From assembly GCA_965216685.1 (NCBI GenBank), contig OZ244195.1:209610-273609 (forward strand): a DNA stretch of 64,000 nt, in the 5' to 3' direction. Under the pieces are notes generated by a model, which was not told the origin of the DNA, searched no databases, and was given only the letters and a program-made list of their open reading frames with translations. Below are positions 3,266-37,754 of the stretch, piece by piece. How positions within the stretch are numbered: position 1 is the first letter of the stretch; every line of letters begins with the position of its first letter. Source of the stretch: Acidimicrobiales bacterium. GTDB taxonomy: Bacteria > Actinomycetota > Acidimicrobiia > Acidimicrobiales > SZUA-35. Made by a program: the position numbers and the translations under genes.

Positions 3266-3290
3266 CAGCGGGGAAAGAGACTCCCGGCAG

Positions 3291-4746: not shown

Positions 4747-4758
4747 CAGACGCCGACA

Positions 4759-22938: not shown

Positions 22939-23022
22939 GCGGACGTGGCGGAACTGGCAGACGCACCAGGTTTAGGTCCTGGCGCCCTAACGGGCTTGGG
23001 GGTTCGACTCCCCCCGTCCGCA
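22939..23022 (+). tRNA. tRNA-Leu (anticodon UAG)
   Basis: Acceptor stem GCGGACG/CGTCCGC, anticodon stem CCAGG/CCTGG with loop TTTAGGT, long variable arm, and T-arm GGGGG-TTCGACT-CCCCC. Confidence 0.85.
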
Positions 23023-23040
23023 CGCCCACAATCATCCTTG

Positions 23041-23090: not shown

Positions 23091-24509
23091 TTACCAGCTG
23101 AAGGGACGATCGATGCCGGCCAGCTTGACCCCGGTGAAAGCCGAGGCCTCCAACGACAGCGCCCGCAGATCCTCCATCTCCAGATTGTGGACCGACGACT
23201 TGCCGCAGGCCTTGGCCAGCAGGGTGATCTCCATGGTCATGGCCGTCAGATAGCGGGCCACCCGCTCGGCCCCGGCGGCCACGTCCATCCGCTTCTCCAG
23301 CTCCGGATCCTGCGTGGTGATTCCCACCGGGCAGAGTCCGGTGTGGCAGTGGTGGCACTGCCCGGGGCTGGTTCCGAGAGCGGCGTAGTCGTCGAGATAG
23401 CGGGGACTGTTGCAGCCCAGCGACACCAGACCGGCGGTGCCGATCATCACACAGTCGGCCCCCAGAGCCAGGGCCTTGGCCGCATCGACCCCACTGCGGA
23501 TACCACCGGCGGCCACCAGCTTGACCTCATCGGCCATACCGGCGTCCTCCAGCGCTTCCCGGGCGGCCCGGATGGCCGACAGCGTTGGTATGCCGGTGTG
23601 ATCGAGGAGCAGTTCGGGCGATGCCCCCGTACCACCCTCGGCTCCGTCGACCACGATCACGTCAGCCCCGGCCTTGGCGGCGATGGCAACGTCGAATCGG
23701 GGCCGGGTGGCTCCCATCTTCACGAAGATCGGAACCTGGTAGCCGGTGGCTTCCCGCAGCTCCTCGATCTTGACCTGCATGTCGTCGGCCCCCAGGAAGT
23801 CGGGGTGGCGAACGGTGCTGCGCTGATCGACCCCCAGCGGCAGCGAACGCATCCCGGCCACCCGCTCCGAAACCTTCATGCCCAGCAACAGGCCGCCGGT
23901 GCCGGGCTTGGCTCCCTGGCCCACAACCAGCTCGATGGCGTCGACCTGACGGAGGTGGCTGAGGTCGAGCATGTAGCGGGACGGCGTCATCTGGTAGACC
24001 AGCAGGTCGGAGGCCTCCCGCTCGTCTTCCAGCATGCCGCCCTCGCCGGTGCAGGTCATCGAGCCCACCTTGGACGCCCCGTAGCCCAGGGCGGCCTTGG
24101 CCGAGGCCGAAAGCGCACCGAACGACATCGAGGCGATGTAGATCGGGATCTTCAGCTCCAGTGGCCGTTCCACCAGCCCGGGACGATCGCCCAGCACGGT
24201 GGTTGTGTCGCAGCTCTCCCGGTAGCCCTCCAAAGGCAGGCGGGTCATCGACGCCGGCACGAACGTCAGGTCGTCGAAGGTGGGGAAGCGGGAGTTGAAG
24301 GTGGTGAATCCCCGGATCTGGTAGCGACCCAGCCGGGACAGGGCGTGGACCTCGGAAATGGACTCCGGTGTCCAACGGATCGATTTGCCCCGGTCATAGG
24401 ACGACGGGACACCAGCCGGTCGGCCGTCCACCGCCCCGTCGCTGTAGGCCACCTCCTCCTCGGAGGGCATTGTGAACGGATACTCGTAACGCCCTAGATC
24501 ATCAGCCAT
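23091..24509 (-). CDS. FMN-binding glutamate-synthase-domain protein (GltB domain 2 / MgsC-like)
   Basis: MSFGALSASAKAALGYGA, GEGG, QGAKPGTGGLL, VVDGAEGGTGASP and a CHHCHTGLCPVGITTQ Cys cluster. The ATG at 24509 overlaps the upstream stop by 16 nt. Confidence 0.8.
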   Translation of the reverse strand: MADDLGRYEYPFTMPSEEEVAYSDGAVDGRPAGVPSSYDRGKSIRWTPESISEVHALSRLGRYQIRGFTTFNSRFPTFDDLTFVPASMTRLPLEGYRESCDTTTVLGDRPGLVERPLELKIPIYIASMSFGALSASAKAALGYGASKVGSMTCTGEGGMLEDEREASDLLVYQMTPSRYMLDLSHLRQVDAIELVVGQGAKPGTGGLLLGMKVSERVAGMRSLPLGVDQRSTVRHPDFLGADDMQVKIEELREATGYQVPIFVKMGATRPRFDVAIAAKAGADVIVVDGAEGGTGASPELLLDHTGIPTLSAIRAAREALEDAGMADEVKLVAAGGIRSGVDAAKALALGADCVMIGTAGLVSLGCNSPRYLDDYAALGTSPGQCHHCHTGLCPVGITTQDPELEKRMDVAAGAERVARYLTAMTMEITLLAKACGKSSVHNLEMEDLRALSLEASAFTGVKLAGIDRPFSW

Positions 24510-25192
24510 GCGCTTGCGTCCCTGCTCTCGAAGTGCCACAGCTTCTGGCCGGACACGATCTTCTTCCAGTCGCGGTCGCCAGGCCCGACCTCCAGCCCGG
24601 CCAGCAACTCATCGACCGAGGCCACTTCGGCCGCCTCCGGCTCGACCACCTTGGTGTCGACCCCCAGGCTCTTGATCGAGCCGGCCACCCAGACCTCCCC
24701 GCCCCACAGCGAGTCGCCGGTGGCCTCGCCGGCGTCGCCCAGGGCGATGATCCGCCCGTCGTGGGCCATGAATCCGGAGAGAAAACCGAGGTCGCCCTCG
24801 ATGACGATGTCGCCCCCTTTCATGGCCACACCGCAGCGGGGCCCGGCGTCGCCCTTGACGTGGACCAGGCCGCCCCGCATGGAGGCCCCAACGCTCATCC
24901 CGGAATAGCCGGCCACCGTGACCCGACCGGAGGCCATGGCTTCACCGGTCCCCCAGCCTGCGTTGCGGGTGACGGCGATCTCGGCCCCGTCGTTCAAGCC
25001 ACCGCAGTAGTAGCCGACCGAACCCTCGAATCGGACGTTGGCCCCCTCGGGCAGTGCCACCCCCAGGTTGTGACGGGATCGGGTGTCGGTGACCACGATG
25101 GTCCGCCCGGCGGCGGCCAAGGCCCGGATCTCGGCGTTGATCTCCCGGATCGGACGCTCGCCGACCTCCACAGTGGTCTCGGTCACGGTCAT
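24494..25192 (-). CDS. GXGXG-motif protein (glutamate synthase alpha-subunit C-terminal domain / MgsB-like)
   Basis: This is the last 232 codons of the 566-aa track ORF. It carries repeated G-x-G-x-G beta-helix motifs (GSVGYYCGGLNDGAEI, GWGTGEAMASGRVTV, GMSVGASMRGGLVHVKGDAG). ATG 25192 overlaps the upstream TGA (ATGA). Confidence 0.75.
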   Translation of the reverse strand: MTVTETTVEVGERPIREINAEIRALAAAGRTIVVTDTRSRHNLGVALPEGANVRFEGSVGYYCGGLNDGAEIAVTRNAGWGTGEAMASGRVTVAGYSGMSVGASMRGGLVHVKGDAGPRCGVAMKGGDIVIEGDLGFLSGFMAHDGRIIALGDAGEATGDSLWGGEVWVAGSIKSLGVDTKVVEPEAAEVASVDELLAGLEVGPGDRDWKKIVSGQKLWHFESRDASAWLMI

Positions 25193-26157
25193 CGGGCCGA
25201 CCCCGCCCCGGCCGATCCGGCGCCGGCCATCGAGCGAACCGACCAGACCTTGGTCAGGCTGGGCCCGTCGTAGTTGGCCATCTCGACGTCGTCGAGGTAG
25301 ATCTTGCGGACCGCCTGCTCCTCGGTGGCCACCGCCAGGGTGCCGCTCTCCTCCTCCACCGCCACCAGGGGTTTGATGGCGAAGGGATCCTTGGCGAAGG
25401 CCATCGAGTCGATGGTGGCCAGGATGTAGGTGAAGCAGCCGTCGAGTTTGATCACCGAGTCCTCCAGCGATTCCTCGATCTTGTGGCCCTTGGCCATCTG
25501 GTCCGACAGCCAGATGGCGATCAGCTCGGAATCGTTGTCGGTCTTGAAGTCGTAGCCGGCCCTGATCAGCCGGCCTTTGAGCAGCTGATAGTTGGTGAGC
25601 TGTCCGTTGTGGACGATGGCGATGTCGGGATACGGCCGGGCCCAGAACGGATGGGAGGCGGTGGGCGAGACGAACGACTCGGTGGCCATACGGGCATTGG
25701 TCAGACCGTGGGACCCCACGAAGTCCCTGACCCCGTGTTTGTCGGCCACCGTGTACCCGTCTCCCAGGTCCTTGATGATCTCCAACGATCGACCGACCGA
25801 TTGGATCTCGAAGCCATCGATGTGATCGGCATCGGCCAGCCACTGTTCGAAGGTGGAGGTGGGGTCGGTTATCTCCAGGCGGACTGAAACATGGTCGGTG
25901 GTGTCGTCGTCCCAGGTCGGCTGGCCGATGAAGTCGGAGCCGTGGCTCCGTGCTATGGCCAGGAAGGTTTCGAGGTGGTCGGACAACGACGCTCTGTCGG
26001 CCACCACCCGCACGACGTAGGAGTCGGTGCGGGGTTCGCCGTACATGCCGAAGCCGGTGGAGTCGGCCCCCCGGTGCCGTTGGGCCTGAATCAACTCGAC
26101 CAGGTCGGCCCCGATAGACCCGTGGGGGCAGAGTATCCGGCCTGCTATGCCGCACAT
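25189..26157 (-). CDS. class II (Ntn) glutamine amidotransferase-domain protein (GltB domain 1 / MgsA-like)
   Basis: ATG 26157 gives the MCGIAG N-terminus (nucleophile Cys2) and lies 6 nt after an AAGGAG site. The track start at 26163 is a TTG two codons upstream. Confidence 0.75.
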   Translation of the reverse strand: MCGIAGRILCPHGSIGADLVELIQAQRHRGADSTGFGMYGEPRTDSYVVRVVADRASLSDHLETFLAIARSHGSDFIGQPTWDDDTTDHVSVRLEITDPTSTFEQWLADADHIDGFEIQSVGRSLEIIKDLGDGYTVADKHGVRDFVGSHGLTNARMATESFVSPTASHPFWARPYPDIAIVHNGQLTNYQLLKGRLIRAGYDFKTDNDSELIAIWLSDQMAKGHKIEESLEDSVIKLDGCFTYILATIDSMAFAKDPFAIKPLVAVEEESGTLAVATEEQAVRKIYLDDVEMANYDGPSLTKVWSVRSMAGAGSAGAGSAR

Positions 26158-26213
26158 CGGCAACTCCTTCCGCTCGGCGGATCCTCGGGATCATCGAGGA
26201 TCCAGACGAGTAC

Positions 26214-26228
26214 TGAATACAGTATACG
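26214..26228. promoter_or_regulatory. operator-like palindrome, copy a (TGAATACAGTATACG)
   Basis: It lies 57 nt upstream of the MgsA-like start. It is one of four related 15-mers in this window. Confidence 0.55.
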
Positions 26229-26270: not shown

Positions 26271-26891
26271 TCAGCCCAACCCCTCGCACCGGTCGAGCAG
26301 ATGCTCGAGCAGATCGACGTGATCCCGCACCTCGCCCTCCTTGAAGGGCACGGTGTAGGGCGGTAGTGGGGGGAAGTAGACGGCGGTGATGGTTCCCGCC
26401 AGCGGAACCAGTTCGATGTGTACACCGCCCGGATCATGCACCACCGACATCGACTTCAGTTCGGACCGACCGGCCAGCTGCCGGGTTTCCTCATCGGCCA
26501 AGGCCTCGGCCACGTCCCGGGCGGAATCCAGGGCCTTGGTGGCGAAGGCGCGGCGGTCGAAGCGGTAGTTGTAGCGGGCCGCCCGCTCCCCCGGCTCGCC
26601 CTTGCGGGCGATCCACTGGGTGTCGATCAGCGCCCCGAACAGCCGGAAGTTTCCCTTGAATCCCACTTCGATGGTCGCACCGTCGGGCCGCACGGTCCGT
26701 GCCGACCGGTAGTCGACCTCGTCAAAAACCACGTGGTCGGCACCGTAACGGCGAACCAGCTCGCCGTGGGGAAGCTCGATGAGGGAGCGGCGCCGGGCCC
26801 GATAGAGCGTCCGGACACGACCACCGAGGCCGAGAAAGGTGGACCCGGTGTCAAAACCGGATCCACCCTCGGTTCGAGTCCTGCCGGTCAT
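26271..26891 (-). CDS. DUF3156-like hypothetical protein
   Basis: This is the last 206 codons of the 339-aa track ORF. ATG 26891 overlaps the permease TGA (ATGA). The family assignment is from memory only. Confidence 0.45.
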   Translation of the reverse strand: MTGRTRTEGGSGFDTGSTFLGLGGRVRTLYRARRRSLIELPHGELVRRYGADHVVFDEVDYRSARTVRPDGATIEVGFKGNFRLFGALIDTQWIARKGEPGERAARYNYRFDRRAFATKALDSARDVAEALADEETRQLAGRSELKSMSVVHDPGGVHIELVPLAGTITAVYFPPLPPYTVPFKEGEVRDHVDLLEHLLDRCEGLG

Positions 26892-28312
26892 ACAGTCTGA
26901 TGAAGTTCCTCTTCGAGATGATCGGCCTGGCCCGACGAGCCCCGCATGGCATAGGAGATGACGGCCACGACGGCCGAACCCAGGATCATCCACAGAGCCC
27001 GCGGCCCGTAGAAATCGTGGCCGCCTCCGGTGAAGGTCTGATACCACACATACACGGTGAGCAGAAAGCCGATCACCGGCACCACCAGTGGCAACTTGAA
27101 AGGCCGGTTGACGTCTGGGTTGACGTAGCGGCTGCCCGCCACCAGCACGTGGTAGGTGATGTAGAGCAGCATCCAGACGTAGGCGGCGGTGAAGATCAGG
27201 TCGCCGACCCCGGCCCCTCCGTCGGCCACGATCCCCCAGTAGATGGTGACGAAGGTGTAGAGCACGGCGGTGAACAGGATGGCCACCCACGGCGTCCGGT
27301 AGCGGGCGTGCACACTGCCGAACGGCTTCGACAACGGACCGAGGAAATGGCCGTTGCGGGACATGCCGTAGAGGATGCGGGGCATCGAGGCGTAGACCAC
27401 GGTCAACGAGGCGAAGGAGGCCACGGTGGCGGCCAGCGCCATCAGGAAGCGGCCGCTACCGCCGAACATGGCCTCACCGACCTCGAGCTGGGGGGCGTCC
27501 TCGGAGACGATACCGGCCCACTCGGAGTTGATGCCACTGACACCCAGTCCCATGAACATCGAGGTGGCCAGAATGGCTATCAACCCCCAGACGATACCCC
27601 GGGGGATGTTGCGGGCCGGATCCCTGGTCTCCTCGGCCAGGGGGGCCACGAACTCGATGCCGACGAAACTCCAGAAGGCCCAGGCCCCGGCGATGGCCAT
27701 CAGGCCGCTCAAGCCGCTGAACTCGGCCGGTGTCGACGGTATGTTGCCCCACGACCAGCCACCGAGGTCGCTGAACCCAAGGAATCCGGCCAGCCCGAAG
27801 AACCAGCGGATGGCCAGCATGACGATGATCAGGCCCAGCTCCAGCTTGGCCAGCACCTCGATGCCGAACAGATTGGGAATCACGGCGAACACCGTCAGGA
27901 TCAACACCCACATGGTGACGCTTCCGCCGTCGAACAACCCGACCATGCCCGAGGCTCCGGCCAAGGTCTCACCGGCGCCGGCGAACATGAACATCACATA
28001 GAACAGCAGACCGAGGAAGATGCCGACCACGGTCTTGGCCGCATGCCCCCCGGGGGTGGCGGCGGCGCCGTAGTCGTACAGTGCTCCGGCCTTGGGATAG
28101 GTGGTCGACAGCTCGGCCGCCGACAGACCCAGCAGCAGGTTCACCACGAACATGGCCAACAAGCCCACGGCAAAGCCCCGGCCGGCGGTGAACCATCCCT
28201 GGAAGTCCGATACCAGCGTGGAGGCCGCCACCACCAAGCCGACGCCGGCGGCGAATATGTCCTTCGTGCCGAGAGCCTTTTTCAGGCCCTCCCCCTCAAC
28301 GACAGCAGTCAT
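26888..28312 (-). CDS. APC-family amino acid/amine permease
   Basis: About 12 hydrophobic segments and 474 aa, with an AAGGAG site 7 nt upstream of the ATG. Confidence 0.8.
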   Translation of the reverse strand: MTAVVEGEGLKKALGTKDIFAAGVGLVVAASTLVSDFQGWFTAGRGFAVGLLAMFVVNLLLGLSAAELSTTYPKAGALYDYGAAATPGGHAAKTVVGIFLGLLFYVMFMFAGAGETLAGASGMVGLFDGGSVTMWVLILTVFAVIPNLFGIEVLAKLELGLIIVMLAIRWFFGLAGFLGFSDLGGWSWGNIPSTPAEFSGLSGLMAIAGAWAFWSFVGIEFVAPLAEETRDPARNIPRGIVWGLIAILATSMFMGLGVSGINSEWAGIVSEDAPQLEVGEAMFGGSGRFLMALAATVASFASLTVVYASMPRILYGMSRNGHFLGPLSKPFGSVHARYRTPWVAILFTAVLYTFVTIYWGIVADGGAGVGDLIFTAAYVWMLLYITYHVLVAGSRYVNPDVNRPFKLPLVVPVIGFLLTVYVWYQTFTGGGHDFYGPRALWMILGSAVVAVISYAMRGSSGQADHLEEELHQTV

Positions 28313-28362: not shown

Positions 28363-28377
28363 TGAATTCTGTATACG
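28363..28377. promoter_or_regulatory. operator-like palindrome, copy b (TGAATTCTGTATACG)
   Basis: It lies 51 nt upstream of the permease start. Confidence 0.5.
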
Positions 28378-28429
28378 GTGTTCACGATCGTAGCCCACGA
28401 TGCAGAGGACGCGCCACAACCAGCAACAA

Positions 28430-29047
28430 TCAGACGTCGAACGCCGACCAGCAGATCTCGTTGCGTAGGCGTTGATCGTCGAGAACAAGTGAGCGAATCG
28501 CATCGGGAAGCTGTTCACGCTGCCAGCGACACTCGGCCCGCCCGGCGGCCACCTGGTCGTCAGTCAGGGTTCCGGCCGGTACACCGGCCGGGGCTCCGGC
28601 CACGGACTCGGCCACGGCATCGGCCCATACCGCCTTGATGGCGTAGGCCGCGGCGCCGAGCTCATGGGCGGCAACATGGGCCACAGCCGCGGCGTGGCCG
28701 GCGGCGTAGGCGGCGTGGCGGGACGCTCCGCTCAGGGGTTGGGCTGCTCGCATGGCCCGGGTTCCCGCCGAACGGCACTCCATCATCTTCATCTGGCCGC
28801 CGGCCCAGGACCGGATGGCCGCGATCGCCTCCCGAGGCCTCCGGTCAGCCGGTTGCTCGGACTCGAAGAAGTGAAGCACGTGGGCCGCACAATCCGCCGC
28901 CCACTCAGCCAGCAGTCGATGATTGGCGTCGCTGAGGCTACCGCCCCGCCGGATCGTGACGAAACGAGGGTCTCGCTTCTCCGGGAGGATCACGGCCTCG
29001 TACCGATGGTCAGGCTCGTCACCCCAGCTCGGCGGCCACGACGGCAT
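28430..29047 (-). CDS. conserved helical hypothetical protein (resembles the putative-immunity / Imm-5-like family)
   Basis: The pattern LLAEWAADCAAHVLHFFE...DRRPREAIAAIRSWAGG...HAAAVAHVAAHELGAAAYAIKA is recalled from a widespread uncharacterised family. Confidence 0.35.
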   Translation of the reverse strand: MPSWPPSWGDEPDHRYEAVILPEKRDPRFVTIRRGGSLSDANHRLLAEWAADCAAHVLHFFESEQPADRRPREAIAAIRSWAGGQMKMMECRSAGTRAMRAAQPLSGASRHAAYAAGHAAAVAHVAAHELGAAAYAIKAVWADAVAESVAGAPAGVPAGTLTDDQVAAGRAECRWQREQLPDAIRSLVLDDQRLRNEICWSAFDV

Positions 29048-29417
29048 CGACCTCGATTTCCACCATCATGCCCGGCGTGGTCAGGCCCGCCTCGAAGCCG
29101 GTCATCACCGGCTCGATACCGGCAAAGACCTCGCCGTGGGCCCGCACCGCGTCGCCCGCCCCGGCCATGTCGGAGAAGATCAGCCTGGTCCGGACCACAT
29201 CGCCCAGCTCTGCCCCCACGTCGTTGAGAGCCTGCTCGATCCGCTTCGGGGCATAGCGCGTTTGGGCGTAGGCGTCGCCCGGAGCGTGTAGCCGCCCGCT
29301 GGGTTCGATGGCCGTGGTTCCGGCCACGAACACGAACGGCCCCACCCGCTTGGCCCGGCAATACGAGCCGGCCTTCTCGAACCGGCCACCTCCATAGGCC
29401 TTCCGGATCTCAACCAC
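29019..29417 (-). CDS. RidA/YjgF-family reactive-intermediate (enamine/imine) deaminase
   Basis: 132 aa, with FVFVAGT...G......Q......N........G....DVVRTRLIF and a C-terminal MVEIEVDAV. Confidence 0.75.
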   Translation of the reverse strand: MVEIRKAYGGGRFEKAGSYCRAKRVGPFVFVAGTTAIEPSGRLHAPGDAYAQTRYAPKRIEQALNDVGAELGDVVRTRLIFSDMAGAGDAVRAHGEVFAGIEPVMTGFEAGLTTPGMMVEIEVDAVVAAELG

Positions 29418-29436: not shown

Positions 29437-29466
29437 GCGGCTAGTCTGAATGCGGCTAGTCTGAAT
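29437..29466. repeat. perfect 15-bp tandem direct repeat (GCGGCTAGTCTGAAT x2)
   Basis: Read directly from the sequence. The second copy supplies the left half of operator copy c. Confidence 0.8.
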
Positions 29467-29476
29467 ACAGTACTCA
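29462..29476. promoter_or_regulatory. operator-like palindrome, copy c (TGAATACAGTACTCA)
   Basis: It sits in the divergent region between the ridA-like gene (start 29417) and the GntR gene (start 29510). Confidence 0.55.
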
Positions 29477-29509: not shown

Positions 29510-30178
29510 ATGATGTTTCAGAGCCTGAAACGCTCGCCCGTCCGGCTGGCCGACCTGGTCTACGAACAGATCTTCCGAGCCATCGTCAACGGCGACCTTG
29601 CTCCGGGCGAGCGCCTGGTGCAGGAGACCATCGGTGAGCAGATGCAAGTATCCCGGACTCCGGTCCGCGATGCCCTGCTCCGGCTGGAGTCGGAGGGCAT
29701 TCTGGAGTCGTCGGGCCGGGGCGGCTACCTGGTTCGATCGTTCGATCGGCAGGAAGCCATCGACATCTACGGCCTGCGGGCCGCCGTCGAGGGTTACGCC
29801 GCCGGGGTGGCAGCCGACCGGGGCGACCAGGCCGACCTGGAGCTGATCGAGAAGGCCATCGCCGAGGCCGACGGCAACAACATCTCGCTCGACGAGGGAT
29901 TCGAGATCAATCGTCGCATTCACCGGGGTGTGGTGCTGGCCGCCCGCAACGCCATGCTGCTCGACGCCTTCGACACCGTGTGGGGTCGCAGCCAGTCGTT
30001 CCGGATGTTCGCCCGCCTTCATTCCCCCGAGCTGCGATACCTCAACGCCGAGCCCAGCCACGACCAGGTGCTGGCCGCCATCCGCACCGGCGATGCCGAT
30101 CATGCCCGGCGAACCATGGAACAGCACATCATGGTCGGCATGGCCCAACAACTCGAGGCCCTCCCCGACGACATCTGA
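29510..30178 (+). CDS. GntR-family transcriptional regulator (FadR/FCD subfamily)
   Basis: An N-terminal winged HTH (LADLVYEQIFRAIVNGDLAPGERLVQETIGEQMQVSRTPVRDALLRLESEGIL) and an all-helical C-terminal domain. Confidence 0.85.
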   Translation: MMFQSLKRSPVRLADLVYEQIFRAIVNGDLAPGERLVQETIGEQMQVSRTPVRDALLRLESEGILESSGRGGYLVRSFDRQEAIDIYGLRAAVEGYAAGVAADRGDQADLELIEKAIAEADGNNISLDEGFEINRRIHRGVVLAARNAMLLDAFDTVWGRSQSFRMFARLHSPELRYLNAEPSHDQVLAAIRTGDADHARRTMEQHIMVGMAQQLEALPDDI

Positions 30179-30187
30179 GCCGGCGTC

Positions 30188-31390
30188 TCATTGGTGCCAA
30201 CCATCGAGACGTCGACGCACGGCGGCGGCCGCTGCCTCCAGGGCCTGGCGCTCCCCCTCGACCAGTGGCAGTTCCACCACCTCCAACACGCCGCCCCGCC
30301 CCAACAGGGCGGGCACGCCGACCACGACGTCACGAATACCGTAGGCCCCATCCAGCACCACCGAAACCGGGATATGACCCGGCCGCGCCCCCCGCAGGGC
30401 GTTGAGCACCTCCACGGTGGCGTAGGCCGGAGCAATGGTGGCCGAACCGGTCCGCCGCAGCGCCACCACGTCTCCCCCGCCGGAAACGGCCTGGTCGACA
30501 CAACGCTGGATCTGCTCCTCGGTCAACATCGCCGACAGGGGCCGGCCCTGAATCGTCGACTGCGAAACCACGGGCACCATCTCGGCCCCGTGGCTTCCCA
30601 GGGTCAGGGCCTCGACGTCGGCCACATCCACCTCGGCGGCGGCGGCCAAGGCCCGCCGGAAACGGGCGGAATCAAGGGTGCCGGCCATCCCGATCACCTT
30701 CTCCCGGGCAAAGCCGCTCTCGGTGTACATCGTCATGGTCATCTCATCGAGGGGATTGGTGATGACGATCACCACCGCCTCGGGAGCATGGGCCACCACG
30801 GCCTCGGCCACCGACCGGACCACCCGGCCGTTGAGCTCCACCAGATCGGACCGGGACATACCCGGCGAGCGGGGCCGACCGGCACTCACCACCACGACGT
30901 CGGCCCCGGCCACCAACGACAGATCGGTACCGCCTGACACCTCGGTCGTCGACCGGGTCACCCCCGAAGCGTGATTCAGGTCGAGGGCCACCGAGGCGGC
31001 CCAGCCGGGCACGATGTCGATGAGTACGATCTCGGCCGACAGCGAGTCGGCGGCGGCCAGCAGAGCGGTGTTGGCCCCCACTCCCCCGGCGCCGACGAAG
31101 GCCACCTTGTCGAACACGATGGGGTTGAGCCCGACCGGAGCGGCCGGTGACATCCAGCCGGGATTGCGTCGGTAGAGGGCACGGCGCATGGCCGTGGCCC
31201 CGCCGACCTGGGGAACGGCCGGCTGTTCGGCCGGCCCCCGAACGAAGCTGATACCCAGCCGCTCGGCGCTGTCGCGGGCTTGACCGGTGATCAGGTCGCC
31301 GTCGCTAAACGAGATTCTCGTCTCCCCCCGCCGGCGGGCGGCCTGAACGTCTTCGTCGCCGATGACCCGGCCCCGGCCGCCGTCGCTCAC
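30188..31390 (-). CDS. LDH-like malate dehydrogenase with a ~95-aa N-terminal extension
   Basis: The core KVAFVGAGGVGANTA, GRPRSPGMSRSDL (Arg-type, malate specificity), ITNPLDEMT and GSHGAEMVP begins about residue 95. The GTG start overlaps the BMC-T stop (GTGA). Confidence 0.75.
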   Translation of the reverse strand: MSDGGRGRVIGDEDVQAARRRGETRISFSDGDLITGQARDSAERLGISFVRGPAEQPAVPQVGGATAMRRALYRRNPGWMSPAAPVGLNPIVFDKVAFVGAGGVGANTALLAAADSLSAEIVLIDIVPGWAASVALDLNHASGVTRSTTEVSGGTDLSLVAGADVVVVSAGRPRSPGMSRSDLVELNGRVVRSVAEAVVAHAPEAVVIVITNPLDEMTMTMYTESGFAREKVIGMAGTLDSARFRRALAAAAEVDVADVEALTLGSHGAEMVPVVSQSTIQGRPLSAMLTEEQIQRCVDQAVSGGGDVVALRRTGSATIAPAYATVEVLNALRGARPGHIPVSVVLDGAYGIRDVVVGVPALLGRGGVLEVVELPLVEGERQALEAAAAAVRRRLDGWHQ

Positions 31391-32031
31391 TCCTGTCGAC
31401 CCTCGATCGATTCGATCGTGGTGACGGCGGCCTCCATGGCCGTCTCCACCGCCGATTCGGTGCCGGAGAAGAAGGCCCGACCGAAGCGGCCCACGGCCCG
31501 CACCTCGACCAGGTCGATGTCGGCCGATTTCTCGGCTTCATTGACGGCGGCCCCCACGTAGGCCGCCGGACTGCATTCCACGATGCCCAGGGTCTGTCCC
31601 GGCACCAGGAGGGAACCCGACCGCCACTTGTTCAACAACTGAGCCTGGTAGGGCTCAACCGAGGTGATGACCTGAGTCGACTCCAACCGCGGTTTCACCC
31701 GATCATTGATCGACAGTCCCAGCATGTCGAGCACGGCGTCCCGGGCGGCCGAGATCTCGGCGTTGACCGGCGACCGGAGGATGAAGAAGCCGAACTCCCG
31801 CTCGACGATCTGGGTGGTGGCCTCGATGGTGGCCGCCTTGAGCGCGGTGTCGATGACCCGGAACACGGTGTTGCCGGGAGCGAACTCGCCCATCAGGATG
31901 GTGTCGCCGGCCAGTGGGATCGAACCCTGGACGGTGGCCCCGTTGTAGGCGGCGAACTTGGGTTGCAGCCGGTTGATCTGCAGCAGGGCCCGCATGGTCA
32001 ACGGGCTGGTCACCCCAGCGTTCCGGCTCAC
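31387..32031 (-). CDS. BMC-T shell protein (tandem BMC domains)
   Basis: Two BMC-like halves: GDTILMGEFAPGNTVFRVIDTALKAATIE...FILRSP and LGIVECSPAAYVGAAVNEAEKSADIDLVEVRAVGRFGRAFFSGTESAVETAMEAA. GTG 32031 overlaps the AldDH TGA. An ATG at 31995 is an alternative start. Confidence 0.7.
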   Translation of the reverse strand: MSRNAGVTSPLTMRALLQINRLQPKFAAYNGATVQGSIPLAGDTILMGEFAPGNTVFRVIDTALKAATIEATTQIVEREFGFFILRSPVNAEISAARDAVLDMLGLSINDRVKPRLESTQVITSVEPYQAQLLNKWRSGSLLVPGQTLGIVECSPAAYVGAAVNEAEKSADIDLVEVRAVGRFGRAFFSGTESAVETAMEAAVTTIESIEGRQE

Positions 32032-33416
32032 GTTTGATCCTCCCCGTAGACGTCGAAGATGGTGCGCCACGGCCGCGACTCGTAGACCACCCGTTTGATG
32101 TTGATCAGATGGAGAGCGTTGACGTTGTCGGACACGATCGAACCCGACCCGGTTCCGGTGCCCAGCATGAAGCTCGGTTCGAGGTCGGAGGAGTAGCCCA
32201 TGGCGGCCATGAGCGCCGGCTGATTGACCACCACCCGGCCGCTGGGGAGCCGGGCAAAGCGGGACACCACCGAGGCGTCGTGGCTGTGGATCACCGCGGT
32301 GTGACCGACCCCGCCCCAATCCAGGATCCGGCCGGCCAGATCCAGCCCGTGGTCGACGGTGGCCGCCTCGTACCAGGCCAGCACCGGGTTGAGTTTCTCC
32401 AGGCTCAACGGCCGGTGGCGGCCGACCTCGGTCTCGGCGGCCAGCAGCACCGTGGTGCCGGGCGGGATGTCGAACCCGGCCCGTTGGGCCAGGGTTTGGG
32501 CCGACTGGCCTACGCCGCCCGGTCGGATGTGCTGGGACTCGTCGAAGATCACATCGGCCAGTCGCTCGGCTTCAGCCGGACTGCAGAAATAGCCTCCCCC
32601 CTGCCTGATCTCGGCCCGGAGGGCGGCGGCGATGGACCGGTCGACGATGACGGCCTGCTCCCCGGCACAGGCCGTGCCGTAGTCGAAGGCTTTGGAGATG
32701 AGGATCTGCTCGGCCACGTCGGCCACCTCGTCGACCATCGACTGGTGGACGTAGCACGGCACGTTGCCCGGACCGACGGCCAGTGTCGGTTTACCCGACT
32801 GGTGGGCGGCCCGGACCATGGCCGATCCGCCGGTGGCCATGATGATGGCCGTCTTCCGGTGCCGCATCAGAGCATCGGTGCCCTCCAGCGTGACCTCGTC
32901 GAGGCACTGGATCAGGCCGTCGGGTGCGCCGTGGTTGCGGGCGGCCTCGGCCATGACCCGGGCCGTCTCCCGACCGCAGTTCACTCCCCGGGGATGAGGA
33001 GCGCAGACAATGGCATTGCCCGACTTGATGGCCGACAGAACCTTGAAGATGATCGTCGAGGTCGGGTTGGTCACCGGGATGATGGCGGCCACCACCCCCA
33101 TCGGTTCGCCCACCGCCATTGTCCTGGTGTTGGCGTCGTGCCACAGCACCCCGAGGGTGGTGATGTTGCGCAGCCAGTCGGCCACCCCCCGGGCGTTGAA
33201 CAGGTTCTTGATCCGCTTGTCGGGGGCGTTGCCGTAGCCGGTTTCCTCGGCCGCCATGACGCCCAGCCGGGCGGCCTCGGTTTCGATGGCCTGGGCCATG
33301 GCCTCGACGATGCGGTCGATATGCTCCGGTGGCGTGCCCCGGAACTTCTCGAAGGCGACGTGGGCCGACTCCACCGCCTGGCGTGCTTGGGCGATGCTTC
33401 GCAAATCGGCATCCAT
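32028..33416 (-). CDS. CoA-acylating aldehyde dehydrogenase (PduP/EutE-like)
   Basis: This is the last 462 codons of the 914-aa track ORF, starting MDADLRSIAQARQAVESAHVAFEKF. It has IIPVTNPTST, a catalytic Cys context (DYGTACAGEQ), VGPGNVP, and lacks the long oligomerisation tail of non-acylating ALDHs. Confidence 0.8.
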   Translation of the reverse strand: MDADLRSIAQARQAVESAHVAFEKFRGTPPEHIDRIVEAMAQAIETEAARLGVMAAEETGYGNAPDKRIKNLFNARGVADWLRNITTLGVLWHDANTRTMAVGEPMGVVAAIIPVTNPTSTIIFKVLSAIKSGNAIVCAPHPRGVNCGRETARVMAEAARNHGAPDGLIQCLDEVTLEGTDALMRHRKTAIIMATGGSAMVRAAHQSGKPTLAVGPGNVPCYVHQSMVDEVADVAEQILISKAFDYGTACAGEQAVIVDRSIAAALRAEIRQGGGYFCSPAEAERLADVIFDESQHIRPGGVGQSAQTLAQRAGFDIPPGTTVLLAAETEVGRHRPLSLEKLNPVLAWYEAATVDHGLDLAGRILDWGGVGHTAVIHSHDASVVSRFARLPSGRVVVNQPALMAAMGYSSDLEPSFMLGTGTGSGSIVSDNVNALHLINIKRVVYESRPWRTIFDVYGEDQT

Positions 33417-34591
33417 CACGACCACCCGATTCCCAGGCTGTCGATGGTTCTCCGGACCGTGCCCATGGAGTCGGCCCGGATACCGATGCGATCGAGACGG
33501 CGACCGGCCGAGTCCAGGTCGCCGCCGAGGACGGCCTTGGCCATGTCGATCATCGAGCGGGTGGCGGGAACGTCGATACCGGCCGGCTCGGCCGCCGACG
33601 CCAGCGGCACCAGCGATCCCAACACGGCACAACGCAGCCGGGACCGGGCCTCGACGGCAGTAGGAATCGTTCGGCCTCCCTCCTCGCTCCCGTCGCCCAC
33701 CACGGCGGCGATGGTGGCCGCCGGATCGGGGAGATCCCGGACACCCCACCGTTCGGCCACCCGGCGGCGCTCGTCGACCAACCGCTCGACCAGCTCGACC
33801 TGACCGGGTTGGAACCGGGACGCCATGCTGGCCCCGGCCAGGGCCACCGCCCCCGGAGGCAGGTCGGGAGACTCGTCGAACACCGGACCCCCGACCAGCA
33901 GGGCCACGGCCTCCACCGCCCCCGAGTGGTCGGCGAAGCTGGAGTGGATGACGGTCGGAGCCGAGACGATGGAGGGAAAGAACCGTTGCAGGCCGGTCAC
34001 CACGGCGTCGAGTGAACTGGGCAGGGTGGCCACCATCGGGTCGACACCGGGATGGAAGTGCAGTACGTGATCGCGGCGCTCCAGCCCGAAGGGCAGGGCC
34101 GACATCTCGGCCACCGTCACCCGGTTGGAGGCACCTCCCACCCGCAACCACCAGGTGGTCTCCAGTGCTCCGAAGGTCCGCCCGGGGGCCACCAGGAGAA
34201 TCTGATCCTCGGCCAGCCGGTCGGCCAGGACCAGGCCGTAGGTCCGTTGCTTCAGGACGGTGCCGGTGACGACGATCAGATCGGCCCCGGCGACGGCCTC
34301 CTCCAGGATCGAGGTCACGGCGATGTGGGGTCCGTCGCCTTGGGTCTGGTAGGTGCCGATTGGACCGGCACCGCGCACGGTGACACCCCGGGCCAGCCGG
34401 GCCAGGTCGTCCTGGTAGACCGAGAACAACGAGACCCCACCGGCCCCGTTGGCCAGGAACCAGGCGGCCAGGGCTTGGCCCTCGATCCCGCCGCCCAGGA
34501 CGGCGACCCGGTCGATGACCGGTTGGGGTTCGGGGGGACGCTGGTCGTCGGTGAACGACTCCAGCACGGCTTGAAAGTCGGCCGAGGTCAT
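33416..34591 (-). CDS. opine (octopine/nopaline)-dehydrogenase-family NAD(P) oxidoreductase with a short N-terminal helix plus Pro-rich linker
   Basis: Rossmann motif VAVLGGGIEGQALAAW, then LIVVTGT..., then LVAPGRTFGALET...VTVAEMSALPFGLERR...VATLPS. This parallels the PG.TGGALE...ET.S.LF..R...A.LP pattern of opine dehydrogenases. Confidence 0.6.
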   Translation of the reverse strand: MTSADFQAVLESFTDDQRPPEPQPVIDRVAVLGGGIEGQALAAWFLANGAGGVSLFSVYQDDLARLARGVTVRGAGPIGTYQTQGDGPHIAVTSILEEAVAGADLIVVTGTVLKQRTYGLVLADRLAEDQILLVAPGRTFGALETTWWLRVGGASNRVTVAEMSALPFGLERRDHVLHFHPGVDPMVATLPSSLDAVVTGLQRFFPSIVSAPTVIHSSFADHSGAVEAVALLVGGPVFDESPDLPPGAVALAGASMASRFQPGQVELVERLVDERRRVAERWGVRDLPDPAATIAAVVGDGSEEGGRTIPTAVEARSRLRCAVLGSLVPLASAAEPAGIDVPATRSMIDMAKAVLGGDLDSAGRRLDRIGIRADSMGTVRRTIDSLGIGWS

Positions 34592-34608
34592 CGACTGTCG
34601 GGCCGGGC

Positions 34609-34893
34609 TCAGTCAGCCTGAGGCAGGATCGACTCCACCTCGGCCGACGGGCGGGGGATGACGTGGACCGAGACGACGTCGCCCACCTTGTTGGCGGCCA
34701 CCGCCCCGGCGTCGGTGGCGGCCTTGACCGCGCCGACTTCACCTCGGACGAACACCGCCACCAGGCCGCCACCCACCTTCTCGCTGCCCACCAGCGTCAC
34801 GTTGGCCGCCTTGATCATGGCGTCGGCGGCTTCCACCGCTGCCACCACACCTCGGGTTTCGACCATTCCAAGCGCAACTTGCTCCATTGTCAC
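34609..34893 (-). CDS. BMC-H shell protein (PduA/CcmK-type hexamer)
   Basis: [57 protein letters not shown] is a canonical BMC domain. Confidence 0.9.
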
Positions 34894-35201
34894 TTTCTCC
34901 TCTTCGGTTTCTCCGAACTCCGGTAGACCGACGTTCCGGCGTGTACCACTTCATCGAGAATCATCACCACGGCGGCATCGACCGCCCGGCCCCGGCTGGC
35001 CGCCGGCTGCCGAGCCGCCGATCCGGTGGTCACCAGGACCCAGTCACCGACACCGGCCCCCAGATCGTCGACCGCCACCTCGCCCGGTTGCTGCACCTTG
35101 CCGGCGCCGTCGACCAGGTCGACGACCAGGAGCTTGCGGCCGGCCAGGCCTTCGGCCTTGATCGTGCCGGTCACGGTGCCGACGATGCGGCCGATCCTCA
35201 C
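34890..35201 (-). CDS. BMC-P vertex protein (EutN/CcmL-type pentamer)
   Basis: [27 protein letters not shown]....G......[23 protein letters not shown]....DAAVVMILD is a canonical EutN/CcmL pattern. Confidence 0.85.
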
Positions 35202-35204
35202 CGG

Positions 35205-36491
35205 TCAGAACCTCCGCAGGTAACGCGCCGTTTCCACCGGCGTCACCTGCTGGGCCATGAACTCGATCTCCCGCTCGGCCTGCCCGATCCAGATGCCGAG
35301 GAGATCTTCCCCCAGCAGATCGGCCACGAACTCCGATTCCCGAGCTGCGGCCACGGCGGCCTCGATGGTCACGGGAATGGGTTGGGCCTCGCCGTTCTCG
35401 TAGGCGTTGCCCAGGTCGGGATCGCCGGGATCGAGATCCTCCTCGATTCCCCGTAGACCGGCGGCGATCTGGGAGGCCAGTAGGTAATAAGGGTTGGTAT
35501 CAGCCGAGCCGTCGCGCTGTTCGATGCGGACCGCGCTGTCGTGGCCCTCGATGACCCGGAGGCCGACGGTGCGGTTGTCGTATCCCCAGGCGTTGTTGGT
35601 GGGGCAGAAGGTGTAGGGCTGACGGCGACGGTAGGCGTTGGGGGTGGACGCCGACAGCAACGCCGTTTCCGCCATGTGTCGTCTCATGCCGGCCAGATAC
35701 TGGCGGCCGATGGCCGACAGCTTGCCGCCATCGGCGAAGATGTTCTTGCCGTCGCGCCAGGCCGAGTGATGGACGTGGAATCCCGAGCCGGACTCCTCGA
35801 AGAACGGCTTCGACATGAAGGTGGCGACGTAGCCGTTGGCCACCGCCAGTTGTTTGATCATGCCCCGGAAGGCCACCACGTTGTCGGCGGTGGCCATGGC
35901 TTCGCCGTAACGGATGTTGACCTCGACCTGACCGGCGGCGTACTCCGGGTTCGACTGTTCGATGGGGATGCCGGCGGCGGTGAGGTCGTTGCGGATCGGA
36001 CCGAGGATCGATTCCAGCTCCATGGCCCGTTCCAGGCCGTAGACCTCGATGCCCGAGTCGCGGGGCCGCAGGGTCTCGGGGTCGAGCAGATAGAACTCGA
36101 GTTCGGCTCCGATGGAGATCTCCAGCCCCATGTCGGCCGCTTTGTCGGCCACCTTGAGCATCACGTTGCGGGGGTCGATGGGGCAGGGTGCGCCGTCCTC
36201 GGTCTGAACCTTTCCGGGACAGAAGGCGGCGCCGGGATCCCAGGCCATGGGCCGCACCTCGTCCGAGTCGGGGAGCACGAAGATGTCGGGGTAGCCGGTC
36301 TCGAAGTTGGTGTAGGGCGTGTCCCAGATGTCGCATGTCATGTCGAGAGCGAAGATGGCGTTGGACATGGCCATGCCGTGCTCGGCCACAGTGGGCCAGT
36401 GACTGGCCGGGATGCGTTTGCCCCGGAGGATGCCGTTGGTGTCCCCCACGCCCAGGACAACGGTGTGAATTCCCTCGGGCAGCTGGCTCAT
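35205..36491 (-). CDS. glutamine-synthetase-family gamma-glutamyl-amine ligase (GmaS/PuuA/GlnA3-like)
   Basis: GS catalytic-domain motifs are present (GAELEFYLLD, NPEYAAGQVEVNIRY, KPFFEESGSGFHVHHS, NAYRRR). It is the first gene of the BMC operon. Confidence 0.75.
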   Translation of the reverse strand: MSQLPEGIHTVVLGVGDTNGILRGKRIPASHWPTVAEHGMAMSNAIFALDMTCDIWDTPYTNFETGYPDIFVLPDSDEVRPMAWDPGAAFCPGKVQTEDGAPCPIDPRNVMLKVADKAADMGLEISIGAELEFYLLDPETLRPRDSGIEVYGLERAMELESILGPIRNDLTAAGIPIEQSNPEYAAGQVEVNIRYGEAMATADNVVAFRGMIKQLAVANGYVATFMSKPFFEESGSGFHVHHSAWRDGKNIFADGGKLSAIGRQYLAGMRRHMAETALLSASTPNAYRRRQPYTFCPTNNAWGYDNRTVGLRVIEGHDSAVRIEQRDGSADTNPYYLLASQIAAGLRGIEEDLDPGDPDLGNAYENGEAQPIPVTIEAAVAAARESEFVADLLGEDLLGIWIGQAEREIEFMAQQVTPVETARYLRRF

Positions 36492-36594: not shown

Positions 36595-36609
36595 TGAATA
36601 CAGTATTCA
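36595..36609. promoter_or_regulatory. operator-like perfect palindrome, copy d (TGAATAC-A-GTATTCA)
   Basis: It lies between the divergent GS-like/BMC operon (start 36491) and the FAD oxidoreductase gene, ending 2 nt before that gene's ATG at 36612. Confidence 0.6.
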
Positions 36610-36611
36610 AT

Positions 36612-37754
36612 ATGCCTGAAGCCGACGTTGTCATCGCCGGAGCCGGCATCGTCGGACTGTGCACCGCCCGCGAGCTTCAGGCCGCCGGGGCCGACGTCAT
36701 GCTGGTCGACCCATGGGAGCCAGGCCACGCCCGCCAGGCGTCAGCCGGCATCCACCGGGTCATCCGCTCGACCCACGGCAGCGATGAGCTGTACACCCGT
36801 TGGGCCCGGGAATCACGGCTGCGGTGGCTGGAGATGCAGGCCACCACCGACACCCCCATCTACCACGAATGCGGGGCCGTGGTCCTCGCCGCCGAAGGCC
36901 ACGACGAATGGGAGATGGCAACCATCCCGACCTTCGACCGGCTCGGCATCCCCTACCTGCGCCTGTCACCCGATGAGCTGGTGGTTCGCTTCCCCACCTT
37001 CGACCCCCGGCAGGTGGCCTTTGCCCTCTACGAACCGGAGGCCGGCTTTCTCTGGTCCCGCAACATCGTGCGCAAACTCTACGCCGACTTCCTGACCGCC
37101 GGCGGGCGGTTCCGGCGAACCCGGTTGACCGTGTCCGACGACGAGCGGCCGCTGCTGGAGGGCCGACCGGTGGAGGCCGAACACACCGTCATCGCCAACG
37201 GGGCGTGGATGGGATATCTACTGCGCTCCTCCCTGGGTCGCCTGCTGCGGGTGGTCCGCCAAGACATCATCTACACCAGCGTTCCCGAAAACGACGACCG
37301 CTGGCACGCCGACCGCCATCCGGTCTGGATCGACCACGGCTACGGGGCCTACGGCATCCCCGACGCCGGAGGCTACGGCTTCAAGGCCGCCATTGCCTGG
37401 CATGAGTCCGACATCAGGCTCGACGACGACGACCGGGTGGTCGATCGGGCCTCCATGGCCCGGTCCCAGCAGTATTTGGGTTACCGCTTCCCCGACATCG
37501 CCGGGCAGGCCATCGTCGACCAGAAGGTATGCCAGATCGTCATGACCCCCGACACCCACTTCCTGCTCGACACCCACCCTGAGCATTCCGATGTGATTCT
37601 GGCCGGTGGCGGATCGGGGTCGATCTTCAAACACGGCCCGGTGGTCGGCGCCTACGTGGCCGGCATGGTTCAGGGCCGCTGGCGGCCCGACGACCGTTTC
37701 ACCCTGGCCAACCGGCGAAGCCTGTCGATGGCCGAATCCCCCTCCGGCCGCTAG
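36612..37754 (+). CDS. FAD-dependent amine/sarcosine-oxidase-like oxidoreductase (DAO family)
   Basis: ATG 36612 gives MPEADVVIAGAGIVGLCTARELQAAGADVMLVD (a dinucleotide fold at the N-terminus). The track start at 36531 (TTG) would put the palindrome inside the coding sequence. Confidence 0.75.
   Translation: MPEADVVIAGAGIVGLCTARELQAAGADVMLVDPWEPGHARQASAGIHRVIRSTHGSDELYTRWARESRLRWLEMQATTDTPIYHECGAVVLAAEGHDEWEMATIPTFDRLGIPYLRLSPDELVVRFPTFDPRQVAFALYEPEAGFLWSRNIVRKLYADFLTAGGRFRRTRLTVSDDERPLLEGRPVEAEHTVIANGAWMGYLLRSSLGRLLRVVRQDIIYTSVPENDDRWHADRHPVWIDHGYGAYGIPDAGGYGFKAAIAWHESDIRLDDDDRVVDRASMARSQQYLGYRFPDIAGQAIVDQKVCQIVMTPDTHFLLDTHPEHSDVILAGGGSGSIFKHGPVVGAYVAGMVQGRWRPDDRFTLANRRSLSMAESPSGR

Follow-up and report, generated by a model that had tools for sequence, protein, structure and literature searches.

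The window analysed here is a 64,000-nucleotide stretch of contig OZ244195.1 (positions 209,610 to 273,609, forward strand; assembly GCA_965216685.1) from an Acidimicrobiales bacterium. It contains a seven-gene bacterial microcompartment (BMC) operon at positions 30188 to 36491 which its gene content and gene order assign to MIC2, a type that has been catalogued but not characterised functionally. The operon lies within a wider GntR regulon, and the combined gene set is read, with about an even chance of being right, as encoding a metabolosome that would break down an amine or amino alcohol by way of conjugation to glutamate. The genes of the operon, from first to last, are as follows.

35205..36491, minus strand: glutamine-synthetase-like (GS-like) ligase, 428 amino acids (aa), first gene of the BMC operon; Gln-synt_C 3.9e-84
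34890..35201, minus strand: BMC-P pentamer vertex protein, 103 aa; EutN_CcmL 1.6e-24
34609..34893, minus strand: BMC-H hexamer shell protein, 94 aa; BMC 4.3e-27
33416..34591, minus strand: opine-dehydrogenase-family NAD(P) oxidoreductase (OpDH), 391 aa, the MIC2 marker gene
32028..33416, minus strand: CoA-acylating aldehyde dehydrogenase (AldDH), 462 aa; Aldedh 1.9e-28
31387..32031, minus strand: BMC-T, tandem-domain protein of the CcmP/CsoS1D type, 214 aa; BMC 3.2e-11
30188..31390, minus strand: LDH-like malate dehydrogenase (Mdh), 400 aa, last gene of the operon; Ldh_1_N 6e-36, Ldh_1_C 2.5e-25

The Pfam values are from single-sequence searches. All seven minus-strand open reading frames (ORFs) were found where the earlier note on this DNA had placed them, and the start/stop overlaps from which it had described a coupled operon were re-read on the minus strand as GTGA at 34893-34890, TGATG at 33418-33414, and GTGA at 32031-32028 and 31390-31387, with gaps of 3 nt between the GS-like and BMC-P genes and of 17 nt between the BMC-H and OpDH genes. 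Its domain calls were borne out by the Pfam hidden Markov model (HMM) search, in which six of the seven proteins, those called BMC and EutN_CcmL included, scored above threshold singly, and the opine-dehydrogenase-like protein was recognised through its family profile and fold. A classical signature enzyme had been said to be absent, and neither a diol or ethanolamine lyase, nor a glycyl-radical enzyme, nor an APH-type kinase was found among the Pfam-scanned ORFs of the window, which also gave no further BMC or EutN domains. A 914-aa ORF at 32028-34772 was rejected as a frame artefact of the high-GC genome, and searches of plasmids with the operon (megablast) and the marker protein (tblastn) gave no relevant match.

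MIC2 was catalogued by Sutter, Melnicki, Schulz, Woyke & Kerfeld (2021, Nat Commun 12:3809, Supplementary Data 2) from 22 loci, which come from two Actinobacteria and from Acidithiobacillia, Alphaproteobacteria and Gammaproteobacteria. It was defined by a minimal shell of three proteins (a BMC-H, a BMC-P and a double-stacking BMC-T), an AldDH without an encapsulation peptide, a pfam02866 Ldh/Mdh protein with an N-terminal extension of about 70 aa related to EutQ, a pfam00120 GS, and a 6-phosphogluconate-dehydrogenase-like/opine-dehydrogenase-like protein bearing a short helical N-terminal extension (Sutter et al. 2021). The catalogue places the MIC2 AldDH nearest RMM1 among the characterised types and proposes no pathway for MIC2, and its text and HMM table give no DAO, RidA or glutamate-synthase-domain genes for the type (Sutter et al. 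2021). The window holds the corresponding shell set, a pfam00171 AldDH without a peptide, an extended pfam02866 Mdh, a helix-tipped OpDH and a pfam00120 GS. The same order of genes is found in a locus of Candidatus Rhodobacter oscarellae, presumably the species entered in the catalogue as “Candidatus Rhodobacter lobularis”, where a divergent DAO gene is followed in the other direction by the genes for GS, BMC-P, BMC-H, OpDH, AldDH, BMC-T, Mdh and RidA. The OpDH of this locus (L083) is 41% identical to that of the window (E=1.6e-67), and the 81 aa of its BMC-P agree with the catalogue.

The comparison with the catalogue leaves next to no probability for the undescribed metabolosome type that the earlier note had announced: a case could be made from the catalogue's main text, which has no pathway, and from the literature searched, in which no paper was found that connects either opine dehydrogenase or the N-methylglutamate pathway to microcompartments, but MIC2 is already named and counted with the same composition, and the locus shares homology and synteny with a catalogued member. 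In the literature searched, no characterised MIC2 was found beyond the catalogue and one 2024 remark, and sponge and Rhodobacteraceae contexts likewise gave nothing relevant. The window differs from MIC2 as catalogued in having an APC permease in place of a Liv-type ABC transporter, co-directional accessory genes and an inserted Imm5-like gene, and the catalogue text makes no mention of the sarcosine-oxidase-like gene, RidA, Mgs-like trio, regulator or operator that are described below.

The marker protein, OpDH, scored below the Pfam cut-off as a single sequence (20.4 bits vs 30). A profile of its family (21 members) matched CENDH (1BG6) over its full length with E=5e-34, and an AlphaFold (AF2) model with a mean pLDDT of 87.7 gave 1BG6 as its best Foldseek match (TM 0.74/0.82), with octopine, yersinopine and pseudopaline dehydrogenases next in rank. 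Both the two-domain fold and the full-length profile similarity that mark the opine dehydrogenase family (PF02317) are thus present in OpDH, together with the Rossmann GxGxxG motif. Identity to CENDH and the opine dehydrogenases is only about 20%, the equivalent of the catalytic His is kept in only part of the MIC2 subfamily, and the subfamily is set apart by six invariant arginines and a predicted N-terminal targeting helix. In the AF2 model this N-terminus forms a helix at residues 3-14 followed by a low-confidence proline-rich linker; the helix is amphipathic and conserved, and F6 is kept in 20 of the 21 sequences. The modelled N-terminus is probably an encapsulation peptide, in the usual helix-linker form.

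The shell set consists of a single BMC-H, a single BMC-P and one BMC-T of the double-stacking CcmP/CsoS1D kind. The BMC-T contains two BMC stretches by Pfam and matched CcmP (PDB 4HT5, E=8e-44) as well as HO-5816, CsoS1D and the RMM protein MSM0275, all over the full length. The AldDH belongs to the CoA-acylating class (PDB 5J78, E=1e-122), and on sequence comparison its nearest relatives are the acetylating acetaldehyde dehydrogenases, although its score of 468 bits against the corresponding model TIGR02518 lies under the cut-off. Residues 2-448 align to acetylating dehydrogenases that do not belong to microcompartments, and the protein hence has no terminal extension or encapsulation peptide.

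The Mdh passed the cut-off of the NCBIfam malate dehydrogenase subfamily NF004863 (324 bits vs 283), and its family keeps R102, R109, D168/R171 and H195, the catalytic and dicarboxylate-specificity residues. The Ldh domains begin at residue 95 and are preceded by an N-terminal extension of about 90 aa, which is conserved in all family members. The first 55 or so residues of the extension align to residues 3-58 of E. coli EutQ (BLASTP E=9e-5; hhalign E=7e-5, probability 63%), a likeness seen only by direct pairwise or profile comparison, as the extension alone had no meaningful match in Pfam or the PDB. In EutQ from Salmonella, the shell is bound by helices H1/H2 (residues 9-41) and cargo peptides by helices H3/H4 (PMC12487888). 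The alignment of the Mdh extension falls on the shell-binding helices H1/H2 of this ethanolamine microcompartment protein. The similarity is weak, the EutQ-like domain is fused to malate dehydrogenase instead of the cupin acetate kinase, and EutQ has no demonstrated equivalent of the second conserved block of the Mdh extension, TDGxTAxRRxLYRRxPxW. By this alignment the Mdh may serve as a lumenal enzyme as well as a shell-cargo adaptor. Because the Mdh keeps the oxaloacetate-specific arginine, the simplest NAD+ recycling would be reduction of oxaloacetate to malate, with a dicarboxylate shuttle across the shell.

The distribution of MIC2 was followed with the marker in one genome per species, which gave 169 genomes with OpDH relatives; the best 80 of the 169 loci were retrieved, and conservation was counted in the 47 complete loci, i.e. 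those with full 10-kb flanks. The 80 loci are mostly from Rhodobacterales and Hyphomicrobiales, with others from Granulosicoccaceae, Arenicellales and Acidimicrobiia; the closest is that of an Acidimicrobiia metagenome-assembled genome (marker 71% identical; shell proteins, AldDH and GS 84-89%). Named carriers include Aliishimia ponticola MYP11, Hoeflea alexandrii, Hoeflea poritis, Microbaculum marinum KCTC 52363 and Nitratireductor sp. XY-223. Within these best 80 loci OpDH was found beside AldDH in 80 and BMC-H in 79, and the MIC2 OpDH, unlike CENDH and the opine dehydrogenases, occurred only beside BMC genes. The seven core genes are present in 46-47 of the 47 complete loci (BMC-P in 46, BMC-H and GS in 47), and their order was constant wherever inspected in loci from three bacterial classes. 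Recurring in this way with the same members and order, the gene set is very unlikely to be a chance assembly.

The conserved neighbourhood extends beyond the operon. The earlier note had overlooked the divergent gene at 36612-37754 for an FAD enzyme (DAO), which is linked in all 47 complete loci. RidA is linked in 41, usually directly after Mdh, and a transporter in 39, of the Liv-type ABC kind in 36 and an APC permease in two. A trio of genes with GATase-II, GXGXG and FMN-synthase domains, resembling MgsABC, was found in 25-28 of the complete loci, a GntR/FCD regulator in 24, a Peptidase_C26 amidotransferase in 14 and an SDR in 11. The usual proteobacterial order places GntR divergently from the MgsA-, MgsB- and MgsC-like genes, followed in the same direction by C26 where present, then DAO divergently from GS, BMC-P, BMC-H, OpDH, AldDH, BMC-T, Mdh, RidA, the binding-protein gene, permeases and ATPases. 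The corresponding genes and the operator sites of the window are as follows.

36612..37754, plus strand: monomeric-sarcosine-oxidase/N-methyltryptophan-oxidase-family FAD enzyme (DAO), 380 aa, divergent from the operon; DAO 1e-41
36596..36608: operator, GAATACAGTATTC, a perfect palindrome in the GS/DAO divergent promoter
29510..30178, plus strand: regulator of the GntR/FCD family, placed convergently at the operon end; GntR 7.7e-16, FCD 2.5e-22
29463..29475: operator copy between RidA and GntR, 1 mismatch
29019..29417, minus strand: RidA/YjgF-family imine/enamine deaminase; Ribonuc_L-PSP 9e-19
28364..28383: a pair of operator-like sites that overlap, upstream of the permease, 2-3 mismatches
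26888..28312, minus strand: APC-family permease; AA_permease_2 7e-24
26271..26891, minus strand: 206-aa protein whose ATG overlaps the stop codon of the permease gene; no match in Pfam
26215..26227: operator copy upstream of the MgsA-like gene, 1 mismatch, at a position occupied in many loci
25189..26157, minus strand: class-II glutamine-amidotransferase protein (MgsA-like), starting MCGIAG; GATase_7 8e-16
24494..25192, minus strand: GXGXG-domain protein (MgsB-like), with an ATGA overlap with the preceding gene; GXGXG 1.2e-13
23091..24539, minus strand: FMN-binding glutamate-synthase-domain protein (MgsC-like); Glu_synthase 1e-93

The operator pattern, which lies in a GS/DAO divergent region of 120 bp, had 17 matches with up to 3 mismatches in the window vs 3.35 expected, and every site with up to 2 mismatches falls within this locus. 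The motif TGnATACwGTATnCA recurred in almost every one of the 60 GS/DAO intergenic regions inspected (68 were extracted), from three classes, and the 80 loci contained 304 operator sites vs 33 in shuffled sequence. The sites cluster before DAO/GS, MgsA-like/GntR and the binding-protein gene in Alphaproteobacteria, Gammaproteobacteria and Acidimicrobiia. Because the same operator stands at their promoters in the window and in other classes, the BMC operon, flavoenzyme, RidA, transporter and Mgs-like trio probably form one co-controlled regulon. Operator sites precede the GntR gene itself in many loci, and the GntR/FCD protein is the likely regulator, presumably a repressor. The gene identities, their conservation, the shared operator and the family relationships are direct observations.

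The regulon is bounded on one side by a tRNA-Leu gene at 22939-23023 (plus strand), 67 bp past the MgsC-like end, followed by ClpP, and on the other side by rdgB-rph-murI. In the relative L092, with an MgsC-like protein 96% identical, the genes following MgsC-like are NAD synthase and VanY genes instead, and the GC content of the locus in the window is slightly higher than its surroundings (0.69 vs about 0.65-0.66). The different flanks in L092 and the slightly higher GC suggest that the regulon, about 14.7 kb long, moves as a unit.

The DAO protein scored 180 bits with the SolA model and matched monomeric sarcosine oxidase (MSOX; 1EL5, E=4e-32); its true start is the ATG at 36612 and not the TTG at 36531. 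Enzymes of the MSOX family oxidise N-alkyl amino acids on the alkyl side, releasing an aldehyde. An invariant C-terminal (E/D)SPSGR following a basic stretch was seen in the DAO homologues (window 37700-37754; L012-L075) from Actinobacteria to Proteobacteria, and this SPSGR tail may be an interaction tail. The APC permease resembles the ethanolamine permease model only weakly (83 bits, cut-off 382) and is 62-68% identical in four Acidimicrobiia loci; it is probably the substrate importer of the actinobacterial versions, with the Liv-type ABC transporter as its proteobacterial counterpart. A PDB search with the ABC binding protein for a clue to its ligand was uninformative. Homologues of the 206-aa protein (about 43% identity) were found in no loci but the four from Acidimicrobiia in which the APC permease is also present, and a 339-aa ORF at 26271-27290 was rejected as an over-extension into the permease gene, another high-GC frame artefact. 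Between RidA and the permease lies an Imm5-like putative immunity gene (28430-29047, minus strand; PF21805 6e-32) which has no counterpart in the 80 related loci nor in the closest relative L092, in which RidA is followed directly by the permease; the gene looks like a recent insertion into the regulon.

The Mgs-like trio has the same gene order as in the Aminobacter plasmid mgsA-mgsB-mgsC-gmaS-mgd cluster, with identities of 31% for MgsA, 37% for MgsB and 55% for MgsC, and the GS-like protein is 28% identical to the canonical GmaS of that cluster. The GS-like protein scored much alike, at 204-220 bits, with the models for GlnA, type III GS/GmaS and PuuA and fell short of each equivalog cut-off, its highest score being 220 bits against TIGR03105 (type III GS), whose cut-off is 470; it is a predicted gamma-glutamyl-amine synthetase. 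With the N-methylglutamate pathway (GmaS, MgsABC, MgdABCD) the window thus shares a GS-like ligase, a trio in the same order and an oxidoreductase of the sarcosine-oxidase superfamily. It differs in that its parts are only 28-55% identical and coupled to a microcompartment and an acylating AldDH, and in having a monomeric MSOX-like enzyme and not the heterotetrameric folate-linked Mgd. The window does not hold the canonical N-methylglutamate set, as the four-subunit dehydrogenase was not found and the GS scores below the type III cut-off, and the substrate of its pathway is probably other than methylamine. The regulon appears to mirror the three N-methylglutamate stages with diverged parts, which is in essence what the earlier note had proposed; its sketch of amine uptake, gamma-glutamylation, formation of an N-substituted glutamate, release of an aldehyde, conversion to acyl-CoA and NAD recycling by the Mdh is partly, and indirectly, supported by the shared operator and these homologies.

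Several further observations were made on the trio. The MgsC-like protein is 78-89% identical in MIC2-linked loci of other phyla; the gap between this value and the 55% identity to MgsC raised the possibility of a BMC-specific paralogue, which was rejected when the same conserved subfamily was found also without BMC genes. In L092 (8310-10016) the GATase and GXGXG domains are called as one 568-aa product; in the window (24494-26194) they lie in different frames with an ATGA overlap, though a 566-aa ORF also spans the region. A second FMN glutamate-synthase-domain protein (49383-50918, minus strand; Glu_synthase 1.9e-77) lies 13 kb away with no adjacent GATase or GXGXG gene and no operator.

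In the proposed pathway a small primary amine or amino alcohol would be imported, here by the APC permease and in Proteobacteria by the Liv-type ABC transporter. The GS-like ligase would join the amine to glutamate using ATP, and the MgsABC-like trio would turn the conjugate into an N-substituted glutamate, as in the N-methylglutamate pathway. The alkyl-side C-N bond would then be oxidised by DAO and/or the encapsulated OpDH-like enzyme, RidA would speed imine hydrolysis, and the acylating AldDH would trap the released aldehyde as acyl-CoA within the shell. NAD+ would be regenerated by the lumenal Mdh through reduction of oxaloacetate, with malate and oxaloacetate shuttling across the shell, and the EutQ-like N-terminal domain of the Mdh would also tether cargo to the shell. 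The substrate, the order of the steps, the enzymes placed inside the shell and the direction of each redox step are what we infer. An ethanolamine-like C2-C3 amine or amino alcohol is the leading guess for the substrate, because of the affinities of the AldDH, the RMM1-adjacent position of this enzyme, the phospholyase-bearing lineage described below and the weak likeness of the permease to ethanolamine permeases. A narrower version, in which the encapsulated NAD-dependent OpDH itself frees the aldehyde from the N-substituted glutamate and the malate/oxaloacetate shuttle of an Mdh that doubles as a EutQ-like adaptor replaces an alcohol dehydrogenase, is tentative and is held to be well short of probable.

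Several points weigh against the glutamate-conjugation pathway. Canonical opine dehydrogenases oxidise the carboxyalkyl side to give a 2-oxo acid and an amine, not an aldehyde. The catalytic His of CENDH, His202, corresponds to H216 in the OpDH of the window, and a His occupies this position in just 10 of the 21 family members. DAO and OpDH are two secondary-amine oxidoreductases that are both universal, leaving their division of labour unaccounted for, and DAO has no recognisable encapsulation peptide. The Mgs-like trio lies within 10 kb in about 26 of the 47 complete loci, neither a phosphotransacylase nor any other provision for recycling CoA is present, and a 2024 paper counts MIC2 among the types for which NAD+ regeneration is still to be determined. 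In addition, a widespread Arenicellales lineage (L087-L090) carries a GntR-MgsABC-like-GS-C26 module with the same operator and no BMC, DAO or RidA. The glutamate-conjugation module is separable from the compartment because this lineage has it without a BMC, and the GS/Mgs-like/C26 module may serve a separate purpose. The GS of the BMC-less module is 65% identical to the GS-like protein of the window, the module is found on very many marine contigs (165 blocks of the sequence collection), and the MgsC-like subfamily (at least 81% identity) is very abundant in marine metagenomes.

Of the alternatives, the one that survives best, itself unlikely, draws on gamma-glutamylation pathways such as the PuuA-D route of E. 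coli and the use of ethanolamine through GlnA4 in Streptomyces. Gamma-glutamylation would mask the amine, the conjugate would be converted to a gamma-glutamyl-aminoaldehyde by OpDH acting as an alcohol dehydrogenase or by DAO acting as an amine oxidase, the AldDH would oxidise this aldehyde in the shell, a gamma-glutamyl hydrolase would free the glutamate, and DAO and RidA would deaminate the amino-acid product. The GS-like protein scores nearly as well with gamma-glutamylputrescine synthetase (208 bits) as with type III GS (220), and a C26/class-I amidotransferase is linked both in the 14 complete loci counted above and in the BMC-less module; the SDR of 11 complete loci would also find a place. 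PuuABCD (putrescine), GlnA4 (ethanolamine) and IpuABCF (isopropylamine) share with the window a GS-like amine ligase and the oxidation of an aldehyde by an aldehyde dehydrogenase, and IpuA and IpuB are presumably glutamate-synthase-domain proteins. These pathways are, however, cytosolic and use non-acylating aldehyde dehydrogenases, unlike MIC2, and a C26 gamma-glutamyl hydrolase occurs in a minority of MIC2 loci and has no homologue in the 64-kb window. The flavoenzyme is sarcosine-oxidase-like, with no PuuB-type model among its NCBIfam matches, the fold of OpDH is that of an opine dehydrogenase and not of an alcohol dehydrogenase, and the highly conserved Mgs-like trio would be left without a role.

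A route like that of RMM1/AAUM (Rhodococcus-Mycobacterium) is considered improbable. Here a kinase and a pyridoxal-phosphate-dependent phospholyase encoded elsewhere in the genome would make the aldehyde from an amino alcohol, the GS- and Mgs-like proteins would only assimilate nitrogen as a split glutamate synthase, and the microcompartment would detoxify acetaldehyde or propionaldehyde. The proposal draws on an abundant marine lineage, separate from the Arenicellales one, in which the full MIC2 regulon, otherwise identical, is adjoined by the genes of a Pot-like ABC transporter and an APH-family kinase, together with that of a class-III enzyme whose nearest solved structures are a bacterial O-phosphoethanolamine phospholyase (5G4I, E=1.5e-90) and human ETNPPL (E=4e-85). 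A kinase plus phospholyase pair is the RMM1/AAUM signature, and its presence hints at ethanolamine-like amino alcohols; both gene sets are thus combined in one marine MIC2 lineage. The window and RMM1/AAUM have in common an actinobacterial host, acylating AldDHs of neighbouring clades (the MIC2 enzyme being set nearest RMM1 in the catalogue), a CcmP-like BMC-T, an APC permease, a GntR regulator, the lack of both phosphotransacylase and alcohol dehydrogenase, and a likely nitrogenous substrate, and the Mgs trio is homologous to three glutamate synthase domains. Conversely, RMM1 has no GS-like, opine-dehydrogenase-like or Mdh genes, and its APH kinase and phospholyase are wanting here: no APH homologue was found in the 64-kb window, and the pair is absent from all 80 species-level loci. 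The sole class-III aminotransferase of the window (6446-7732) was rejected as an RMM-type phospholyase, being 30% identical to the phospholyase-like enzyme of the marine lineage, transaminase-like, part of an unrelated cluster and without an operator. The universal OpDH and DAO would be left unexplained, and the GS-like protein fails the GlnA equivalog threshold.

Opine catabolism, in which an imported N-carboxyalkyl amino acid (e.g. strombine, alanopine or tauropine) would be cleaved by the OpDH-like enzyme, is very unlikely: the closest solved relatives of the marker are opine dehydrogenases, Liv-type binding-protein transporters are linked, and the names attached to related loci (Hoeflea poritis, Candidatus Rhodobacter oscarellae) presumably indicate sponge or coral hosts, but the products would be an amino acid and a 2-oxo acid with no aldehyde, leaving the BMC and acylating AldDH purposeless and the GS-like and Mgs-like genes unexplained.

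MIC2 is one of several types with an AldDH but no known aldehyde-forming enzyme or cofactor recycling. The locus itself just adds a member to the type; it is the regulon and the comparative contexts that make the function of MIC2 testable, and the regulon operator, the universal DAO link, the N-methylglutamate-like module, the fusion of Mdh with a EutQ-like domain and the lineage with the phospholyase pair are new here. Should the narrower version, with an aldehyde-releasing OpDH and a malate/oxaloacetate shuttle, be correct, its signature chemistry would be new for microcompartments, glutamate serving as carrier in a route that has diverged from the N-methylglutamate pathway, and actinobacteria and aerobic marine bacteria would be able to use ethanolamine-like amines independently of B12. 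Judged by their names, many of the 169 marker species appear to be marine and some host-associated, and the substrate may thus be of consequence for how nitrogen and carbon are turned over in the sea.

Three other regions of the window were noted. Positions 1568-9306 encode an AMP-binding enzyme, an AurF-like N-oxygenase, an ABC-2 exporter, the class-III aminotransferase mentioned above, which is closest to acetylornithine and putrescine aminotransferase models and also to PigE, a polyketide cyclase/SRPBCC protein and a weak acyl-CoA-dehydrogenase-like protein, and together these genes have the look of a small cluster for a secondary metabolite, without relation to the BMC. At 40267-43741 (minus strand) a cyclopropane-fatty-acid-synthase-like methyltransferase, a DUF1365 protein and a flavin amine oxidase are encoded without an operator and outside the BMC regulon. 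SmpB and then tmRNA (tag ANKADFALAA) are encoded at 45116-46090 (plus strand), with prfB, ftsX and secA downstream; this housekeeping synteny and a Septum_form-domain protein are consistent with an actinobacterial host.

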